Origin: a virus
Length of the DNA: 40,243 nucleotides
Virus record (IMG/VR): IMGVR_UViG_3300028968_000002
Direction: 5' to 3' (one strand)
The translations under genes and the position numbers were made by a program. Each line of letters begins with the position of its first letter. The first letter of the stretch is position 1. Below the pieces are notes generated by a model. The model did not search any database, was not told where the DNA came from, and saw nothing but the letters and a program-made list of their open reading frames with translations. This document shows positions 8,010-32,934 of the stretch, piece after piece.

Positions 8010-8795
8010 TTATAAAACTATTTTAAGCAATTCTGAAAATTTATCTTGATAATACATTGGTTGTGTTTCCTTTGGGCACTTTGGATTAACTAGATTTTCG
8101 CCCCATTCTGTATCAACTAACATTTTAAACTTCTTATTTCCTCCATTAGAAGTTTTTCTTGCACATTCCTTTAAAATACCTTTTTCAATAAGTAATTTAT
8201 TGAAGGCTATTGCACTCATATTTATATAATTCTTTTTTAATAAATCTGATATTGGTAATATTCTGCCTTTAGATTTTGTGTATTGTGGTAATAGGTTAGT
8301 TGGGATATTATGATTTTCATATACATTAGTAGCAAGTGCTAATTTGCTGCTATCATTTAAGTTTAATAATTTTGCAGTTACTTCAACTAAACTTAATTCT
8401 GCTTTTGCTATGTCTATTTCTTTTATATAATCGTCTTTATTTATGCCTTTAGTTGAATACTCCCCTGTTTTTCTTATAGAAGGTAGTACTGTATCTGTAA
8501 CCCAATCTTGAAATCTTTCTGCTTCTGGTTTTCTTGATTTAAATATAAGTTTATATACTCCAGCTTCTTTTAAGAAATTTTCGCCAGTATTATGTAATTT
8601 TCTAAAGTCAATATCTTTGACATTAGAAGCAGTTAATTTTATAACTTGATTTTCATTCATTTTAGATATTGCCATTCTTACTGCACTATCAGTCAAATCT
8701 AAACATTTTCCTACATGATAAGGATTAAATAAAATTTCACCATTAAAATCAAACACTTCTACTTTGTTTCCTTCAAAATCCATTAATTCATTCAT
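8010..8795 (-). CDS. BRO-N domain protein, antirepressor-like
   Basis: The Bro-N signature FNGEILFNPYHVGKCLDL...GVYKLIFKSRKPEAERFQDWVTDTVLPSIRKTGEY is present. The C-terminal half is KilAC/ORF6C-like. An AGGAGG RBS precedes the start. Confidence 0.85.
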   Translation of the reverse strand: MNELMDFEGNKVEVFDFNGEILFNPYHVGKCLDLTDSAVRMAISKMNENQVIKLTASNVKDIDFRKLHNTGENFLKEAGVYKLIFKSRKPEAERFQDWVTDTVLPSIRKTGEYSTKGINKDDYIKEIDIAKAELSLVEVTAKLLNLNDSSKLALATNVYENHNIPTNLLPQYTKSKGRILPISDLLKKNYINMSAIAFNKLLIEKGILKECARKTSNGGNKKFKMLVDTEWGENLVNPKCPKETQPMYYQDKFSELLKIVL

Positions 8796-8915
8796 ATTAT
8801 CTAACCTCCTATTGATTTTTATCTTTAGAGAATTTATAATATGATAGAGAAGTTTTTATAAGTTCTCTATTTTTGGAAGATATCCTGTTACTTTGGACGG
8901 TAGGGGGATATCTTT

Positions 8916-9068
8916 TTATTTGTCTTTATTATTATTTAGATATTCATGTATAGCCTTTTCTAAAACTTCTTGAATAGATGTATTTTCTTTTACGACTTTA
9001 AGTTTCAATTTAGTTCTAGTCTCTTCATCTACTCTAACTAATATCTGTTTTTGTGAACTTCTTTTCAT
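8916..9068 (-). CDS. Ribbon-helix-helix (Arc/CopG-like) protein, 50 aa; not in the supplied ORF track
   Basis: My own translation is MKRSSQKQILVRVDEETRTKLKLKVVKENTSIQEVLEKAIHEYLNNNKDK, with an AAAGGAG RBS. The beta-strand-helix-helix pattern (ILVRVDEETRTKLK...SIQEVLEKAI) fits RHH. A tandem 8-bp repeat atgttatc x2 (9097-9112) abuts a minus-strand TATAAT (9092-9097). Confidence 0.65.
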   Translation of the reverse strand: MKRSSQKQILVRVDEETRTKLKLKVVKENTSIQEVLEKAIHEYLNNNKDK

Positions 9069-9335: not shown

Positions 9336-10844
9336 TTATATTTTAAATTTAACCTCCAAAGTAAACTGTGCAAATCTCTTTTTTTCTTTATAATATAAAA
9401 TTTCCTTTATAACAGTTTTTAAAGCCTTGTTTTTCAGCTCTATGTTATCTGTATTTTCGTAACTTTCTATAGCACACTCTATATTTTGTGCTAATTCTTT
9501 ATAATCAATGTCCTTGCTAATTTCTACCTCTAATAACTTTTTAGTACCCTTTATAGCTATTTCTATTTCTTCTTTCTTATTTGCCAAAGTCTGTTGTCTT
9601 TCTAAAAAAGTATCTACATCATATATACCTCTTTCTAGTAAGTCGTGCAATCTGTCTTTTTGCTTATCTAGTTCTGTTTTTTCTTTATCTAAAGTAGTTA
9701 AAGTATTTTGTAACATCTCTAATTGCTTATTTTCTCTATCTTCTATTTCTGTATTATCTAATTCATCTTTAATCTCTTTTAATTTTATTTTTAGGATGTT
9801 TATGATTTCTTCTTCTATTAGATCTAACCTAGAAGAACCTACCTCATAACATTGTTTGCAGCGCAAATAAAGTACAGGACCTTCTTTACCTGTATTGTAA
9901 GATGCTACCATTGTATGTCTGCAATTAGAACATTTTACTATACCTGCAAGTGGATTAATTAGTTTTCTATCACTTTTCTTAGCGGGTATTTGATTATTTA
10001 TTCTTATTTCCTGAGCTTTTTCCCAGTCATCTTCCGATATAATAGGTTTGTGCTTTCCTTTACATACTATCATATCATTTCCTTTGTTTTTTCTTGTTTT
10101 AGTTCCTTTTCTCTTATATTCAAACCAAGTCACATATCCACAATAAGTTCTATTTCTTATAATCCTTCTAACCGCACATTCTGTAAAACATTTACCAGCA
10201 GTTGTTTTATATCCTAAAGCATTTAGATGATTCATTATTTTATAAGCACCTTCACCGTTTAAATACATGTCAAATATAAGTTTTATTGCTGGAGCAGTTT
10301 CTTCATCTATAATCATATGTCTTTTACCATATTCATCATATTTAAATTTATATCCTAAAGGGGCTGTTGAGCCTATGAAATTACCTTCTTCTATAGATTT
10401 AACTCTACCACGTTGCATACGTTTAGTTATTACTTTTAATTCCCTGCGTGCAAAGAATGTTTTAAATTCTGTCATTTCTTCGTCTAGGTCATTATTCAAG
10501 TCATAAGTTTTATCGGGGGTAATAATTAATGTTTTACTTTCCTTAAATGTATTAATTATTTTTCCCTGGTCCTGCATATCTCCACGCCCTAGACGGTCTA
10601 TATCCATGCATAATACGGCATCATACATATTCTCTTTAACTTCTTCTAATAGTTGCGTCATTTTAGGTCTTTTTGCAATGCTATCCCCACTAACTATTTC
10701 TTCTTTTATCTCTACAACATTAAGGTCCTGCTTTTTAGCAACTTCTAATAATGTACTTCTATGCCTAGCAAGTGTATCAATATCTTCTTTTTTCTCCAGT
10801 TCTTCATCAGCCCTAGATTTTCTAAGGTATATACATGTTTTCAT
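9336..10844 (-). CDS. int: Large serine recombinase (integrase)
   Basis: The N-terminal resolvase-type catalytic motif is CIYLRKSRADEE (Y-x-R-x-SR-x-D, as in clostridial TnpX/TndX-type enzymes). There is a recombinase domain, a Cys-rich Zn ribbon (CSNCRH...CKQC) and a long C-terminal coiled coil. An AGGAGG RBS is present. Confidence 0.92.
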   Translation of the reverse strand: MKTCIYLRKSRADEELEKKEDIDTLARHRSTLLEVAKKQDLNVVEIKEEIVSGDSIAKRPKMTQLLEEVKENMYDAVLCMDIDRLGRGDMQDQGKIINTFKESKTLIITPDKTYDLNNDLDEEMTEFKTFFARRELKVITKRMQRGRVKSIEEGNFIGSTAPLGYKFKYDEYGKRHMIIDEETAPAIKLIFDMYLNGEGAYKIMNHLNALGYKTTAGKCFTECAVRRIIRNRTYCGYVTWFEYKRKGTKTRKNKGNDMIVCKGKHKPIISEDDWEKAQEIRINNQIPAKKSDRKLINPLAGIVKCSNCRHTMVASYNTGKEGPVLYLRCKQCYEVGSSRLDLIEEEIINILKIKLKEIKDELDNTEIEDRENKQLEMLQNTLTTLDKEKTELDKQKDRLHDLLERGIYDVDTFLERQQTLANKKEEIEIAIKGTKKLLEVEISKDIDYKELAQNIECAIESYENTDNIELKNKALKTVIKEILYYKEKKRFAQFTLEVKFKI

Positions 10845-10951: not shown

Positions 10952-11644
10952 TTATTCTAAATCAACTCCTGTGGTTTCTTTAGTTTCTTTTACATTTTGT
11001 TCCCATGTAAAAACTTTAATTTCAGAGTTTTGAGCATCCTTATTTACTAATTTTACATCCTCATAAACATTACTTAAAAAATATGTATCCCAATCATCGG
11101 CAACTTTGTAATTATCTCTATCTTCATATTTTACAACATAATAACCATCATTTTTAGCTTGATAGAATATACCATAATCCTCATTTTCGACTTTAAAAAC
11201 AACTCCATCGAAATAATATTGTTCAGGTGTAAAAATTACATTACCAGTATTTGTTTTTAAAACTCTATTAGTATATGCTGAAACTTTATTTCCATTGGAT
11301 TCACTAAAAACTTCTTTGTAATTATGACTAGGAATAGTATTTATTAGTATAATTTCATCAGAGTAGTTTTCGGTTGAATAATCTTCGTTATTTGCGTATA
11401 AATCAATTTCAATATCCAAATCAAAATCACCATTATTTTTAACATATAATTTTTCGTCTTCACGCCATATATTTATATCAACACCTTGTTTTTCTAAAGA
11501 AAAATGCAATGATCTAGCAGTATTAGATTCTTCATTTTCTTGACTGGATATCTGTGAAGATGTATTTGCAGCTGGATTAGAACTACAACCTACAATATTT
11601 AAGCATAGTATTAAGCATAAGATAACACTTGATATTTTTTTCAT
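10952..11644 (-). CDS. Prophage lipoprotein (230 aa from the internal start)
   Basis: The signal peptide with lipobox is MKKISSVILCLILCLNIVGC-SS. The strong AAGGAGGAG RBS serves the ATG at 11644 rather than the track start at 11692. The gene lies between the integrase and the repressor. Confidence 0.8.
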   Translation of the reverse strand: MKKISSVILCLILCLNIVGCSSNPAANTSSQISSQENEESNTARSLHFSLEKQGVDINIWREDEKLYVKNNGDFDLDIEIDLYANNEDYSTENYSDEIILINTIPSHNYKEVFSESNGNKVSAYTNRVLKTNTGNVIFTPEQYYFDGVVFKVENEDYGIFYQAKNDGYYVVKYEDRDNYKVADDWDTYFLSNVYEDVKLVNKDAQNSEIKVFTWEQNVKETKETTGVDLE

Positions 11645-11783
11645 ATTACTCCTCCTTATATTTTTCTTAAATTGTAGCATAAATTTACACATTTTACCTT
11701 TATATACATAAATTTATTTTATATACAATTTATATATTCAATTTAAGAGTTGTTTGATGTATAATATATTATAAGTAATAAAA

Positions 11784-11799
11784 CAGAACATCTGTTCTG
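11784..11799. promoter_or_regulatory. LexA (Cheo/DinR-type) box candidate, CAGAACATCTGTTCTG
   Basis: It is a perfect GAAC-N4-GTTC core with 7-bp palindromic arms. It lies 18 bp downstream of a TATAAT hexamer (11760-11765) and 30 bp upstream of a small ORF. Confidence 0.55.
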
Positions 11800-11828
11800 A
11801 TAAATATTTTGTTTATAAGGGGGATAAC

Positions 11829-11927
11829 ATGGAGAATAAAGAAAAAGTATTATTATTAGGAGAATATTTTTTAGAAGAAATTTTAAAACTAATAGAAGAT
11901 AAGGAAAAGGAAGATTTAAATAAATAA
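11829..11927 (+). CDS. 32-aa acidic ORF (MENKEKVLLLGEYFLEEILKLIEDKEKEDLNK) downstream of the LexA box
   Basis: There is an AAGGGGGA RBS 6 nt upstream, and the ORF sits between its own promoter-like hexamer and a terminator. It is very short, so coding status is uncertain. Confidence 0.35.
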   Translation: MENKEKVLLLGEYFLEEILKLIEDKEKEDLNK

Positions 11928-12002
11928 GATTGGATATTTATTTGATATGTATCGGGATTAGGATTAACACATAGTGTAAATTATCTACTTTATAAGCGAA
12001 GC

Positions 12003-12034
12003 AAAGAGACTTAGAAAATCTAAGTCTCTTTTTT
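12003..12034 (+). terminator. Plus-strand rho-independent terminator overlapping the 3' end of the repressor gene
   Basis: A 12-bp stem (aaagagacttag / ctaagtctcttt) with a 5-nt loop is followed by TTTT on the + strand only. Confidence 0.7.
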
Positions 12035-12346
12035 AAATTGTTTAATCATTTCTATCATTGCATTAAATTCACTTTCTGATAATTTATCAGTAACATTAAT
12101 AACTTTCTTTTGTCTATCTGACAAATCTGTTTTAGGTTTTCTGTCATTACTATATCCAGTCAAATAATCAATGGTAACATCAAAGAATTTAGCTAATTTA
12201 AATAACGATTCTACATCACATTTTCTTTTGTCATTTTCCCAATTATAAACAGTCTGCTTACTTTGGTTTATTATTTTACCTAGTTCTTCCTGGGTTAGTC
12301 CCTTTTCTAATCTCAAACTCTTAAGTATTTCCCCTTGTTTTTTCAT
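12020..12346 (-). CDS. CI-like repressor, XRE-family HTH, 108 aa, with no S24 peptidase domain
   Basis: The sequence LRLEKGLTQEELGKIINQSKQTVYNWENDKRKCDVESLFKLAKFFDVTIDYLTG is a classic HTH_3 motif. The gene is divergent from a Cro-like gene. Confidence 0.85.
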   Translation of the reverse strand: MKKQGEILKSLRLEKGLTQEELGKIINQSKQTVYNWENDKRKCDVESLFKLAKFFDVTIDYLTGYSNDRKPKTDLSDRQKKVINVTDKLSESEFNAMIEMIKQFKKET

Positions 12347-12576
12347 GCACTTTCCTCCTATGCTTACATTTTATGCAAAATTATATATATTTATAATTAA
12401 ACAAAATGTATTACATTTCCTTGAAATTATAACATTTTAACGATTTTTTATCTATCTAATTTTAAAAATTGGCAAATAAAAATAAAAAAATAAAACAAAA
12501 TTTTTATTTAATAGTTGACAATAAACAAAATGGATACTATACTTAAGGTATAAATTAAAGAAAAGGAGGTTAAGAA
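12347..12576. promoter_or_regulatory. Genetic switch region with divergent promoters and repeated half-sites
   Basis: The rightward promoter is TTGACA (12515-12520), a 17-nt spacer, then TATACT (12538-12543). The leftward promoter has an extended -10, TGTTATAAT (complement of 12426-12434). There is a palindrome aaatgta-t-tacattt (12404-12418). The half-site AAAATGT/ACATTTT also recurs near 12366, 12432 and 12525. Confidence 0.6.
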
Positions 12577-12810
12577 ATGAGAGTAAAATCTTACAGAAAG
12601 TTTTATAACTTAACCCAAAGTGATATGGCAGATAAATTAGGAATCACACTTCAAAATTATTATCAAAAAGAAAATGGCATTAGAGAATTTAAATTATCTG
12701 AAGCTAAAAAGATAGCTGATTTATTTGATGTGAGCATAGAAGATATTTTTTTTGCTGATGAAGTAAACAAAATGATTACTAAAAAAGGTGAAATAAAGAT
12801 AGCTTTATAG
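12577..12810 (+). CDS. Cro-like XRE-family HTH regulator
   Basis: The HTH motif is NLTQSDMADKLGITLQNYYQKENG. An AAGGAGG RBS is present, and this is the first gene of the rightward early operon. Confidence 0.8.
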   Translation: MRVKSYRKFYNLTQSDMADKLGITLQNYYQKENGIREFKLSEAKKIADLFDVSIEDIFFADEVNKMITKKGEIKIAL

Positions 12811-12817
12811 AAAGGAG

Positions 12818-13714
12818 ATGAAATATATGGATTACATAAACAAAATGAATAACTTAGTTCAAAATTTAACAGTTGTAGAAAATGTTGAGGAATTTATTCC
12901 TATATATGAAACAGACAAAGGTGAAAAAGTTGTAAGTGGCAGAGAATTACATCAAGGTTTAGGAGTTCAAAGAGATTTTACAGATTGGATAAAACAACAA
13001 TTAAATTCGGTAGATGCTACTGAAAAAGACTTTTCCCTTTTAAAAGGGAAAACCTCAGAAGTGGGTGGTAGACCAACAGAAGAATATATATTAAAACTTG
13101 AGATTGCAAAAGAAATATGTTTAGTTGCTGGAGCATCACCAAGAGCAAATGAAACATTAAAGCAAAAATCAAAAGCTTATAGAAAATATTTAATTCAATT
13201 TGAAGAAAAACATAAAAATCAAATATCTAATTTAACAGAAAAACAAATGCTACAGTTACAAATCCTAAATGGAGATGAAATGGAGAGAATAGGAGCTTTA
13301 AAACAATATGAGGGAGTTATAACTAAACCTCTAATAGACACAATAGAAAAACAATCAGATGCAATAAATGAATTAAAACCTCATGCAGAATATGCAGAAA
13401 GAGTTTTAGAAGATAAAAAAACATTGTTAACTCCAACACAAATAGCTAAAGACTTCGGAATGGCTGGTAAAGCATTAAATGCATTATTACATGATCTAGG
13501 AGTTCAATATAAACAAAACGGACAATGGCTTTTATATGCTAAGTATCAAGGCAAGGGATATACAGGACCATATCAACCAGATATACCAAATGCTAAACCA
13601 CAGACAAGATGGACACAAGCTGGTAAGAAATTTATCCATGATATTTTAAGAAAAAATGGTTATAAAACAGTTTTAGAAAGCAAACAGCAACAACAAAGAT
13701 TTGATTTTAACTAA
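12818..13714 (+). CDS. Antirepressor-type protein (AntA/ORF6N-like N-terminal domain plus KilAC C-terminal domain)
   Basis: The N-terminus is VVSGRELHQGLGVQRDFTDWIKQQL...AKEICLV. The C-terminus is LLTPTQIAKDFGMAGKALNALLHDLGVQYKQNGQWLLYAKYQGKGYT. The start is more likely the ATG at 12827, which is 9 nt from GGAG. Confidence 0.8.
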   Translation: MKYMDYINKMNNLVQNLTVVENVEEFIPIYETDKGEKVVSGRELHQGLGVQRDFTDWIKQQLNSVDATEKDFSLLKGKTSEVGGRPTEEYILKLEIAKEICLVAGASPRANETLKQKSKAYRKYLIQFEEKHKNQISNLTEKQMLQLQILNGDEMERIGALKQYEGVITKPLIDTIEKQSDAINELKPHAEYAERVLEDKKTLLTPTQIAKDFGMAGKALNALLHDLGVQYKQNGQWLLYAKYQGKGYTGPYQPDIPNAKPQTRWTQAGKKFIHDILRKNGYKTVLESKQQQQRFDFN

Positions 13715-24291: not shown

Positions 24292-24321
24292 TGTGTAAAA
24301 ATATAGAAAGGAGTGGTATTA

Positions 24322-24825
24322 ATGGCTAAATTAACAGCTAAACAAAAGAAGTTTGTAGAAGAATACTTGATAGACCTTAATGCCACTCAAGCGGCTATTA
24401 GGGCTGGATATTCTCCTAATACTGCACAAGAACAAAGTAGCAGGCTATTATCAAATGTTATGGTTAAAAATGAAATAGATAAAGCTATGGCCGAAAGAAG
24501 CCGAAGGACAGGTATTAGTCAAGATAGGGTTTTAAGGGAGTTAGCAAAGATAGCTTTTGTTAATCCAGGAGATGTAATAAATTTAAATCAAGCTACTGTA
24601 AAATCAGATGCAAAAGAAGAAGATTTAGCTGCTATAGCTAGTGTAAAAATAAAAAACATACCAACAGAAGATGGAGAAATAACAGAAAGGGAAATAAAAC
24701 TATGCGACAAATTGAAAGCATTGGATTTACTCGGCAAGCATTTAGGTATATATGACAAAAAAGATGCTGAGGATAAAAACCTAACAATAACAATCAACAA
24801 GGCAAGTGAAAAAAATGGAAATTAG
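24322..24825 (+). CDS. terS: Terminase small subunit (Terminase_2 / P27-type)
   Basis: The motif is [49 protein letters not shown]. The AAAGGAG RBS serves the ATG at 24322; the track start at 24313 is GTG. Confidence 0.85.
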
Positions 24826-26089
24826 CATAACTTGTAACGACCATTTTGAGGACTTTGTTTTAGATTGGAATTATAAATTTTATTTTCTTGTTGGTGGATA
24901 TGGTAGCTCTAAAAGTTATCATGTGGCCCAAAAGCTGCATCTAAAATTATTACAAGAAAAAAGATTAGCTTTAGTTGTAAGGGAAGTATATGACACTATA
25001 AGAGATAGTTGCTTTTCGCTTTTACAAGATGTAGCAGTGGATATGGGCATATATGATATGCTTAAATTTAAAACATCGCCTATGCAAGTAACTTATCCTA
25101 ATGGGAGCAAGATAATCTTTAAAGGTATGGATAAACCAGCTAAATTAAAATCTATTAATGGAGTATCTATTATATGGGTTGAAGAATGTTCCGAGGTTAA
25201 ATATGAAGGATTTAAAGAACTTCTAGGTCGTTTAAGACACCCTACACTTAGCAATCATATTATATTAAGTGAAAATCCAATAGAAAAAGCTAACTGGACT
25301 TATAAACATTTTTTTATCGATGAAGAAAATGATAAGAAAATACTTGATGATGAAAAACTTTATATTGAAAGAATTATCAAGACAAATAATACATACTATC
25401 ATCATTCCATCTGTGATGACAATTATTTTCTACCTCAGGACTATATAAAAGAACTTGATAACATGAAAGAGTATGATCCAGATTTATATAGAGTAGCTAG
25501 ACAAGGTAGATTTGGCATAAATGGTACAAAAGTATTACCACAATTTGAGATGATGGACCACGATTTAGTTATGGCTAAAGTAGGTTCTATCCCTTCTAGA
25601 TTTTATAGAGCTGGCATGGACTTTGGATTTGAAACTTCATACAACGCACTTATAAGAATTGCTATAGATGATGTAAACAAAGATTTGTATATTTACTGGG
25701 AATATTATAAAAATCATATGACAGATGATAAGACTGCTAAAGAAATAGATGAATTTAGAGTAAATAGAGAGGTAATAAGAGCAGATTCAGCCGAGCCTAA
25801 GACAATTAGATTTTATCAGCAAGAAGGATTTAAAATGGTTCCAGCTAAAAAATATCAAGGCTCTAGACTGCAAAATACTAAAAAAGTAAAAAGATTTAAG
25901 CATATATATTGCTCGACTAAATGCGTTAATGTAAAAAAAGAATTGAAGGATTTAACATATAAGCAAAATGAAAAAGGCGAGAATATATATGATGAATTTA
26001 ACATAGATCCACATACATTTAGTGCTATTTGGTATGCACTAGATGGCTATGAGGTTGCAGATTATAAAAGACATTATCATAGTAGATAG
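24806..26089 (+). CDS. terL: Terminase large subunit (PBSX/Terminase_3-like)
   Basis: Walker A is [11 protein letters not shown] and Walker B-like is [10 protein letters not shown]-terminal nuclease region is present. The gene overlaps the end of terS. Confidence 0.92.
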
Positions 26090-32035: not shown

Positions 32036-32383
32036 ATGTTTAAGGATTTATATAAATTTCTTAAAACTGCTGGACTAACTGTATTTTCTTTAGGGCAACA
32101 AGATAAAATTTGTACTACTCCATTTGTACTTTTTTATAACGCTGGGATAGAGGATACAACAAGTAAAAATCTAAAAAAAGAGAGCATAGAGTTGTGGGTA
32201 TTTTATCCGTTTAACGAGTATTCCAAGGTTGGTGGATATATAAAACGAGTTGAAGATACAGTAACTAAATTTGGCAAATTAAGAAAAGATTATGATAAAT
32301 ATGCTATTGAAATAGATAACGATATGAAAGCTTATTATACTAAGCTTACGTATTACAGATATGTACAAAGGAGGTTGAGATAA
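32036..32383 (+). CDS. Tail completion / terminator-like protein (115 aa)
   Basis: Called on position only, upstream of the major tail protein. Confidence 0.5.
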   Translation: MFKDLYKFLKTAGLTVFSLGQQDKICTTPFVLFYNAGIEDTTSKNLKKESIELWVFYPFNEYSKVGGYIKRVEDTVTKFGKLRKDYDKYAIEIDNDMKAYYTKLTYYRYVQRRLR

Positions 32384-32934
32384 TGGCAACAGAGGTAACA
32401 CTTAACCAACATGCACTTTCAGATGTGGCATGTGTAGAAATAGTTACAGAAGATGAAAAAAGTTATACGTTTGTAACTGCTTCCGAAGTCGGTATAGAAG
32501 AAGTGCTTGACGAAGGAGATGAACAAACTTTAAAAATAAAAAATGTATTATACGCAAATAGAAAGGCAGAAGATACATTATTAGGACATAATTTGACTTT
32601 TACAGACAATCTTATGTGTCCTGAGTTATTAGAATTATTCCAAGGAGGAACATTAACACCAGGAGAAAATGGCAATTTTACATATACACCTCCAGCAATA
32701 GGGACAAAAGTAACTAAAAAGAAATTTACATGTAATATATATACTTGTGAAGTTTCTACGGATGGAGACACTGGTAAATATATAAAAGCATCTTATCCAA
32801 GCTGCGAAGGAACTAGCGTTCCGTTTACTTTTAAAGACGGAGAATATTATACAAATGAATATACTGTAAAATCTAGACCAGCTAAAAATGTACAACCGTA
32901 TACAGTTTCTTTAGTAGATGCATTACCAAAATAA
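32383..32934 (+). CDS. Major tail protein
   Basis: It is 183 aa, has a TAATG overlap with the upstream gene, and lies immediately before the chaperone pair and the tape measure gene. Confidence 0.7.
   Translation: MATEVTLNQHALSDVACVEIVTEDEKSYTFVTASEVGIEEVLDEGDEQTLKIKNVLYANRKAEDTLLGHNLTFTDNLMCPELLELFQGGTLTPGENGNFTYTPPAIGTKVTKKKFTCNIYTCEVSTDGDTGKYIKASYPSCEGTSVPFTFKDGEYYTNEYTVKSRPAKNVQPYTVSLVDALPK

Follow-up and report, generated by a model that had tools for sequence, protein, structure and literature searches.

A candidate LexA-gated micro-antirepressor gene convergent on a short helix-turn-helix repressor in a family of gut prophages

The window analysed here is the whole of IMG/VR virus record IMGVR_UViG_3300028968_000002 (40,243 nucleotides (nt), one strand), an AT-rich, complete temperate phage genome of ~40 kb and ~31% GC. 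Convergent on its gene for a 108-amino-acid (aa) CI-like repressor lies a compact transcription unit, here called the mini-gene, which encodes a 32-aa peptide behind a putative LexA box (Table 1). Human-gut assemblies hold many near-identical contigs of 38-40 kb, and the NCBI names on near-identical members of the repressor's 90% cluster identify the host as Intestinibacter bartlettii or a Romboutsia sp. Both genera belong to the Peptostreptococcaceae, the family of C. difficile. Short, non-cleavable helix-turn-helix (HTH) repressors are very common in Gram-positive gut phages, and the genes by which most of these prophages sense DNA damage are too small for annotation. Relatives and other loci that we compared with the window are referred to by L numbers.

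Direct reading of the sequence finds, in this order, a TATAAT hexamer, a palindrome, a ribosome-binding site (RBS), an acidic 32-codon open reading frame (ORF) and an intrinsic terminator, all at the positions proposed in an earlier sequence-only reading of this DNA. That reading had given the terminator a 12-bp stem; the hairpin and its T-run are borne out, and the stem is computed as 13 bp. The right arm of the hairpin is formed by the last four codons and stop of the repressor gene (K K E T stop), confirming the overlap, and the minus-strand reading of the hairpin is followed by GCUUCGCUUAU, which is U-poor. The hairpin is thus a good intrinsic terminator on the plus strand only, as had also been proposed. 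By position, the 108-aa gene is the lysogeny repressor. It had been described as HTH-only and, having no S24 domain, as incapable of self-cleavage. In agreement with this, its matches in Pfam are HTH_3-type families with no Peptidase_S24, PHROGs having been used as well, and its sequence matches in the PDB are confined to the HTH. The window proteins scanned included no S24 or ImmA-type protease, and none appears in the Pfam annotation of the relatives' early regions.

Table 1. Features of the mini-gene, the immunity region and their surroundings (window coordinates).
Feature	Position	Strand	Details
Candidate -10 of mini-gene, TATAAT	11760-11765	plus	
Putative LexA (Cheo/SOS) box, CAGAACATCTGTTCTG	11784-11799		perfect 16-bp palindrome CAGAACA-TC-TGTTCTG
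TAAACAAAAT copy, candidate half-site	11806-11815	minus (inverted)	between LexA box and RBS of mini-gene
RBS, AAGGGGGA	11817-11824	plus	5 nt from last G to ATG
Micro-ORF, MENKEKVLLLGEYFLEEILKLIEDKEKEDLNK	11829-11927	plus	32 aa, ATG start, net charge -4
3′ untranslated spacer of mini-transcript	11928..12002	plus	75 nt; least conserved part of unit (variable-site table, window versus L003 and L122)
Intrinsic terminator	12003-12036	plus	hairpin 12003-12031, 13-bp stem, -16 kcal/mol, then T-rich TTTAAATTGT
CI-like lysogeny repressor	12020-12346	minus	108 aa, HTH only
Divergent promoter region	12347..12576		
TAAACAAAAT copy	12398-12407		downstream of repressor promoter
Repressor promoter, TAGATA-17-TATAAT	12454->12426	minus	
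Lytic promoter, TTGACA-17-TATACT	12515-43	plus	best promoter match in region
TAAACAAAAT copy	12522-12531		spacer of lytic promoter
Cro-like HTH protein	12577-12810	plus	77 aa; first gene of early lytic operon, divergent from repressor
TAAACAAAAT copies	12764-12773, 12837-12846		cro/ant junction: end of cro, start of ant
AntA + KilAC two-domain protein	12818-13714	plus	298 aa; second gene of lytic operon
Conserved backbone segment upstream of mini-gene	11660..11759		alignment of 20 distinct relatives
Extended -10-like TGCTACAAT	11679->11671	minus	conserved, just upstream of cargo gene
Cargo gene RBS and start codon	RBS 11655->11650, ATG 11644	minus	
Serine recombinase (integrase)	9336-10844	minus	
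Terminase genes	24313-26089		small and large

The core of the palindrome, GAAC-N4-GTTC (11786-11797), lies 20 nt downstream of the TATAAT hexamer, at about +10 to +26 from the predicted start. In C. difficile, to which the host is related, a GAAC-N4-GTT(C/T) motif was used to search for the LexA regulon, with partial validation (PMC4234289). The box matches this motif and, on sequence grounds, would be bound by LexA. Two GAAC-N4-GTTC sites occur in the window (11786 and 32810) versus 0.23 expected, and 0 of 100 shuffles contained two. The earlier estimate of ~0.3 chance occurrences is therefore right, yet a second site exists. This second perfect match (GAACTAGCGTTC, 32810-32821) falls within a structural-gene ORF (32383-32934) and is probably due to chance.

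The box itself could likewise have arisen by chance, or form a small hairpin at which minus-strand transcription ends or pauses on its way from repressor to cargo, with the ORF being incidental. The palindrome does score as terminator-like on the minus strand, where its 6-bp stem is followed by UUUUAUUACU; in the 97% relative L003 (TAGAACATTTGTTCTA) the core is the same and both flanks have changed symmetrically, which also preserves base pairing; and the window holds the further copy at 32810 in a coding region. However, the hairpin is weak (-6.3 kcal/mol, z = -2.3 on the minus strand), and the heteroimmune relative L122 (TAGAACATCTGTTCTG) alters one flank only, so that the outer pair is broken in the minus-strand RNA while the GAAC/GTTC core, invariant in all 20 variants aligned, is kept. 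In addition, other phages have full 16-mer boxes of LexA type at the corresponding position, within canonical -35/-10 promoters (L194; L126/152/155). We consider it highly improbable that the palindrome is anything other than a LexA operator. A LexA-regulated promoter on the minus strand at the box was also considered and rejected; its -35 would be AACAGA, and a plausible cargo promoter is located ~100 nt further on.

To place the mini-gene within its phage family, we collected public contigs carrying the exact peptide and repressor and aligned 20 distinct versions. A triplet consisting of the 32-aa ORF, the 108-aa repressor and the 77-aa Cro is constant across contigs and both flanks vary, the linkage of the unit to the repressor/cro pair holding over at least 6 cargo variants and several Ant variants. 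Homology among the 20 versions begins sharply at ~11660. The constant triplet, the variable flanks and this sharp boundary show that the unit belongs to the immunity module. Conservation in related prophages had been named as a check on the earlier reading, and the unit is indeed kept with repressor and cro in all variants. When L003 is compared with the window, the best-conserved block comprises the box, an operator-like 10-mer, the RBS and the start codon, the last three without any change. In L003 a deletion of 11 nt lies immediately before the TATAAT hexamer and leaves it intact; L122 has the hexamer too, together with box and RBS, and the RBS is invariant in all relatives.

The micro-ORF is called as a gene on >100 metagenomic contigs, and the exact peptide is found on >100 human-gut contigs. 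Variants in the peptide cluster are conservative (V7L, L21I, K25E, K27N). Four changes separate codons 2-11 of the L003 ORF from those of the window, all of them synonymous, and five non-synonymous changes fall in codons 17-31; the divergent ORF tail of L026 was set aside, as it adjoins a stretch of N in the scaffold. A shuffle test of RBS plus ORF on the window gave p ~0.01. The conserved RBS and ORF and the coding-type substitutions suggest that the micro-ORF is coding, and its product is probably helical, judging by the pattern of its sequence.

The heteroimmune relatives L122/L125 keep the promoter, the box, the RBS and the N-terminus MENKxKxLLLG, beyond which divergence is complete. Their ORF tail (MENKKKALLLGKKLSTRLEIIAMLAEKKQNINKKKQK; 37 aa, net +9) stays open through the diverged part, and they have their own hairpin terminator, a different repressor (143 aa, net -9) and different operator-like repeats. 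Compared with the window, where the peptide carries -4 and the repressor +4, the +9/-9 combination of L122 would have the look of a specific peptide-repressor pair, in this one comparison.

The predicted mini-transcript (11772-12040, plus strand) folds far below shuffles (z = -5.1), which is one point in favour of an alternative in which the transcript acts as RNA or via convergent transcription, into the 3′ end of the repressor gene and against read-through from there into the cargo genes. Through polymerase collision or antisense pairing it would lower repressor or cargo expression after damage, leaving the peptide irrelevant. The convergent geometry and the terminator within the repressor's last codons are conserved across lineages, L122 and the Terrisporobacter phage TPELB_ph1 having an equivalent hairpin of different sequence over their repressors' KKGT-stop codons. 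Because the hairpin is a poor terminator on the minus strand, repressor transcripts probably read through the whole mini-gene, which would create a long sense/antisense overlap. A precedent is the OOP RNA of lambda, a non-coding transcript from a LexA-repressed promoter that is antisense to the 3′ end of cII, has its own terminator and acts with RNase III on cII mRNA. The mini-gene resembles OOP as a short, putatively LexA-repressed transcript convergent on the 3′ end of a lysogeny-promoting gene, again with its own terminator. It differs in carrying a conserved RBS-preceded ORF and in overlapping the repressor coding sequence by only ~15 nt (12020-12034), and an Rfam scan of the whole window returned no family.

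An RNA-only route would need neither RBS nor ORF, yet a strong RBS and an ORF are present in 11/11 box-to-repressor intervals (an ORF-selected set, described below). The N-terminal codon changes in L003 are all synonymous, and the untranslated spacer is the least conserved part of the unit. In the computed fold, a long-range pairing would sequester the RBS against 11975-12000; we rejected this as a conserved feature, since heteroimmune L122 is without the complementary 3′ segment and the pairing is lost there. In the Bacillus phage phi106, which has a comparable small ORF, an allele recoded to remove the antisense overlap remains functional, and loss of the start codon abolishes the response (bioRxiv 10.1101/2025.11.23.689978). 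The sequence-only reading had left the choice between peptide and antisense transcript open; these observations favour the peptide and make the RNA route distinctly unlikely.

We then asked how often a LexA-type box accompanies an HTH repressor gene in this manner. IMG/VR was scanned for the 16-mer TAGAACANNTGTTCTA, and 80 loci, chosen on the 16-mer alone, were analysed. In 7/80 the box lies 85-212 nt past the 3′ end of an HTH gene, and 3 or 4 of the 7 also showed a divergent second HTH gene, as in a repressor/cro pair. Random placement of the box predicts 0.6 such loci (0/2000 trials reached 7) and intergenic-only placement 2.6 (1/2000 trials reached 7). At six of the seven, the box is within or directly after a promoter reading towards the repressor 3′ end, such as TTGACA-17-TATAAT in L194 or TTGATT-17-TATAAT in L126/L152/L155, and the geometry of the L192 phage matches that of the window (TATAAT, 17 nt, box). 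The same 6 loci continue with a G-rich RBS and an ORF of 35-51 codons (35-53 with an alternative start). A terminator hairpin abuts the repressor gene in three of them (L152, L192, L194), and elsewhere the ORF ends at or overlaps the repressor 3′ end. An Oscillospiraceae element (L005/L048) shows a like arrangement with the box CTGAACACTTGTTCGG, and a metagenome scan with the RBS/start pattern yielded just 2 further loci.

The arrangement extends to published phages. Downstream of repR in the C. difficile phage phiCD119 (L248, NC_007917.1, ~32600-32800) lie the box AAGAACATAAGTTCTGA, the RBS AGGGGGAT and an acidic micro-ORF of 45 codons (MHKSNENINKEERIKKTIKELEVLLELDVEFFESLLEKIEKEEEF), followed by a terminator common to repR. 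phiCDHM19 is identical in arrangement; its record has the hypothetical gp49 at this position, and the phiCD119 record has no annotation at the micro-ORF. In TPELB_ph1 (L249, PP197244.1, ~25050-25320), ATAGAACGGTTGTTCTAT runs into TATAAT, after which come an RBS and a micro-ORF of 35 codons; the end of this ORF lies in the hairpin that also encodes the repressor's last codons. What the record annotates here is a different ORF, of 48 aa and on the other strand. The RBS sequences before the micro-ORFs of phiCD119, TPELB_ph1, L126/152 and L192 are G-rich and of like kind to that of the window. Altogether, 11/11 box-to-repressor intervals contain an RBS-preceded ORF of 32-52 codons pointing at the repressor 3′ end, a length reached by interval shuffles in 0-2.4% of trials per interval. 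The opposite strand of the 11 intervals has no comparable RBS-preceded ORF (none in 10; 16 codons in L048). One locus, L164, was left out of this test as ambiguous, its sole RBS-preceded ORF lying almost wholly inside the repressor gene.

Several of these loci are mosaic in the same way as the window and L122. L126, L152 and L155 share promoter and box and differ in ORF tails and repressors, and L126 and L152 also share their first codons, MGKEDYK. A recombination junction within the first ~11 micro-ORF codons would allow one SOS promoter/box/RBS cassette to be joined to different peptide-tail and repressor pairs, as comparisons of the window with L122 and of L126, L152 and L155 with one another illustrate.

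The same mosaicism bears on the target of the peptide, which, if induced by SOS, could act on LexA or RecA, on the Cro or Ant protein, or on the host, for instance on cell division or DNA uptake. LexA-controlled small phage proteins with other targets are known, for example gp7 of GIL01, which binds LexA; the contact between peptide and repressor is deduced here, and charge complementarity between the two is not general. Against a different target stand the tight linkage to the repressor gene and the C-terminal half of the peptide, which changes with repressor type (window versus L122; L126/L152/L155), whereas a peptide aimed at the host or at LexA should not vary with immunity type. Moreover, the precedent for this exact geometry is antirepression. 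A target other than the repressor is thus unlikely.

That precedent, and the closest known system, is the LexA-controlled AimX/AimC of phi106-type phages (AimX-AimC-AimL, extended arbitrium). In Bacillus arbitrium phages, AimC is an HTH-only, RecA-insensitive repressor of 80-140 aa, and AimX, a protein of 29-80 aa encoded convergent to aimC, inactivates it (Kabel et al., bioRxiv 10.1101/2025.11.23.689978). The 29-aa AimX ORF of phi106 lies just downstream of a LexA site, and its product binds AimC, blocks oligomerisation and relieves repression; very few close AimC/AimL homologues are reported outside arbitrium systems (bioRxiv 10.1101/2025.11.23.689978). As in AimX/AimC, the window ORF is convergent on the gene for a short HTH-only repressor, on whose other side a divergent cro-like gene heads the early operon. 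AimX is highly divergent and co-varies with repressor type, as does the micro-ORF between window and L122, and the predicted layout of the window repressor (HTH, linker, two C-terminal helices, in a low-confidence model) would parallel the description of AimC. The Wbeta-like phage Athena has a matching layout of small ORF, hairpin and convergent repressor in gp7/gp8/gp9.

Despite these similarities, no aimR/aimP pair lies upstream of the window unit, where minus-strand cargo genes and the serine recombinase are found instead, leaving LexA as its sole recognisable input. Small tetratricopeptide (TPR) proteins in some relatives (92-102 aa, opposite strand) are not placed like aimR. The host is a Peptostreptococcaceae gut anaerobe rather than a Bacillus, and the peptide has no detectable similarity to AimX. 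The window unit would work like AimX/AimC, yet it is not a member of the arbitrium module. Athena (L247, OK500002.1, 1768-2289) also encodes a second HTH-only protein, gp4 (114 aa), near its integrase, with a convergent 54-aa ORF, gp3, and a GAAC-N4-GTTC site (ACAGAACAAAAGTTCGTA) ~100 nt before the start of gp4; within Athena, the window repressor matches gp4 best, ahead of AimC.

Other systems share parts of this logic. Sar of phi3T/SPbeta is a small LexA-controlled antirepressor whose promoter has a Bacillus-type SOS box, and it acts by DNA mimicry on monomeric SroF, an integrase-fold repressor without a LexA-like cleavage domain (bioRxiv 10.1101/2025.11.27.690993). The proposed micro-antirepressor would resemble Sar in small size and LexA control, and Sar-SroF pairs are mutually specific; SroF, however, is not an HTH protein. 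Among Gram-negative phages, LexA-repressed antirepressors include 186 Tum, Gifsy-1/3 GfoA/GfhA, those of Fels-2, N15 AntC and SPC32H Ant. There too a non-cleavable repressor is paired with an antirepressor gene that LexA silences until SOS, but these proteins are larger (~80 to >140 aa), are encoded at other genome positions rather than facing the repressor gene, and are controlled through a CTGT-N8-ACAG box. In B. subtilis, the small helical SinI heterodimerises with the C-terminal helical multimerisation domain of SinR and stops its DNA binding. SinI-SinR differs as a chromosomal developmental switch without LexA control, in which SinI is homologous to the SinR C-terminal domain, whereas peptide and repressor have no such similarity here. 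A further solution for HTH-only repressors of Firmicutes elements occurs in the Acetoanaerobium phage ANDSL2_ph1, which has a related repressor with a metalloprotease gene directly downstream (ImmR/ImmA). In ImmR/ImmA the co-directional gene for a ~170-aa protease, which cleaves the repressor, occupies the same slot as the mini-gene; the window repressor is flanked instead by the 32-aa ORF and the cro-like gene, with no ImmA/Peptidase_M78 among the proteins scanned or in the relatives' annotation.

Based on these comparisons, we favour, as a moderately probable reading, a LexA-gated micro-antirepressor gene within the immunity module of Intestinibacter/Romboutsia prophages: SOS would free the peptide, the peptide would disable the repressor and the lytic promoter would open. 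In the lysogen, host LexA on the core of the box, just downstream of the promoter, would silence the mini-gene, and the phage repressor may add to this via the adjacent TAAACAAAAT site. DNA damage would activate RecA and cause LexA to cleave itself, after which a ~260-nt transcript (~11772 to 12036) would appear, its strong RBS driving synthesis of the 32-aa acidic peptide. The peptide would bind the 108-aa repressor, most likely on its two C-terminal helices, and block dimerisation or oligomerisation and hence DNA binding, so that the promoter at 12515-43 becomes free to express cro and the early operon. In this scheme LexA binding and SOS inducibility are deduced from the box, and the peptide-repressor contact is proposed by analogy with AimX-AimC and SinI-SinR. 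The suggestion that the unit serves as the prophage's SOS sensor for a non-cleavable repressor, already made in the sequence-only reading, is supported by its linkage to the immunity module, the invariant box core, the recurrence in independent phage lineages and the phi106 precedent.

A number of observations weigh against this interpretation. The -35 of the mini-gene promoter is weak (TTCAAT, 11737-42, 3/6 match, 17-nt spacer), and promoter-like matches in this AT-rich stretch show no excess over shuffles (11 found versus 17.3 expected), so that the promoter call within the window rests on the -10 and its context; the transcription start at ~11772 is likewise a prediction. An exhaustive phmmer search with the peptide against 1.84 billion representatives gave 1 match, its own 84% variant, Pfam and PHROGs gave no match for any micro-ORF peptide, and the peptide is not demonstrably a homologue of AimX or of the other micro-ORF products. 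Charge complementarity holds in 3/7 pairs (window, L122 and L192, but not L126, L152, L155 or L194) and was rejected as a general rule, and local alignments of peptide with repressor, compared with shuffles, revealed no mimicry (p 0.10-0.90). The window repressor is 35% identical to Athena AimC, the one AimC compared, over residues 5-70 (66 aa), which covers only the generic HTH. Its structural model has low confidence (mean predicted local distance difference test score, pLDDT, 60.7). Finally, the enrichment in the 16-mer survey is modest on its own because 3/7 loci share one promoter module and are not independent, and the 11 intervals were picked after inspection, each for carrying such an ORF.

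The recurrence raises a broader proposal, to which we give slightly less than even credence: micro-ORFs of 30-50 codons under LexA control, each facing the gene for an HTH-only repressor and ending at a terminator common to both, may form a widespread and largely unannotated SOS-induction module of gut prophages in Clostridia and other Firmicutes, phiCD119-type phages included. The module would be built for swapping, and arbitrium AimX/AimC would be one elaboration of it, not its origin. The class of mechanism is already known; the notable point is the unannotated recurrence of this design across Clostridia phages, phiCD119 among them. If the reading is correct, it supplies a concrete induction switch for a prevalent Intestinibacter/Romboutsia prophage family and extends the AimX/Sar micro-antirepressor concept beyond Bacillus arbitrium phages. 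The same hidden switch would then be indicated in phiCD119-type phages of C. difficile, where antibiotic-triggered SOS induction and RepR-dependent toxin regulation are medically relevant, RepR of phiCD119 also repressing toxin regulation. For annotation, the search rule would be a LexA box, an RBS, a 30-50-codon ORF and a terminator, in this order, at the 3′ end of an HTH-only repressor gene.

A similarity search with the repressor found nothing between 64% and 100% identity, leaving no intermediate relatives for covariation analysis in that collection, and the best match on genome contigs (54%) is in C. grantii. A DNA similarity search of 11600-12600 against deposited phages returned short, irrelevant matches only. 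The single-sequence AlphaFold2 model of the repressor places helices in residues 4-63 (HTH, 1-64), followed by a break or linker and helices at 75-87 and 91-107, and is compatible with an AimC- or SinR-like oligomerisation tail, without proving one.

The 10-mer TAAACAAAAT occurs 5 times in the 40 kb versus 0.81 expected, and all copies lie within 11806-12846; the longer consensus of these repeats is TAAACAAAATGnATTAC. The set probably represents operators of the repressor and/or Cro, in which case the mini-gene would also be wired to the phage switch. As a caveat to this role, heteroimmune L122, with its different repressor, retains the same bases at 11806-11815. The early operon led by the cro-like gene encodes the AntA/KilAC protein, ERF or RecT recombinases and replication genes. 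Its post-cro slot varies among relatives, with AntA, Bro-N or pRha N-termini and mostly KilAC/ANT C-termini (ORF6C in two). The AntA plus KilAC architecture of the window protein matches Listeria AriS, which damps the host SOS response and regulates phage genes and is not a classical antirepressor (PMC9043618).

Repressor gene, cargo genes and integrase are all on one strand, and structural genes and a lysis gene are encoded elsewhere in the window. The cargo ('moron') slot spans 10952-11660, between the mini-gene unit and the serine recombinase, and all its occupants are on the repressor strand; TGCTACAAT, at the edge of the conserved backbone, is a putative promoter for the cargo gene. At least 6 unrelated gene sets occupy this slot in otherwise near-identical phages (window versus L001, L003, L020-L029 and L110-L119): a lipoprotein-like 230-aa protein; DUF4429/SHOCT, a 391-aa protein and DprA; TPR and DZR; a 217-aa protein; a 174-aa protein; and 36-aa plus 142-aa proteins. 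Beyond the integrase and adjoining the endolysin gene, 8010-9068 (minus strand) encodes an RHH protein (50 aa, ParG/Omega-like) and a Bro-N protein (261 aa), which occur in some relatives and not in others. A LexA-like TTGAACGTCTGTTCTT is found in host DNA ~30 nt past the integrase 3′ end (L020 10245, L027 10004, L028 8236), at the end of an NMT1-family gene; this points to an attachment site between the integrase gene (end 9336) and the small RHH gene (8916-9068) of the window. One contig (L113/L124, OBKV01000304.1) carries, ~2.5 kb left of the unit, another repressor/cro/pRha immunity region of a different type and could be a tandem or chimeric prophage.

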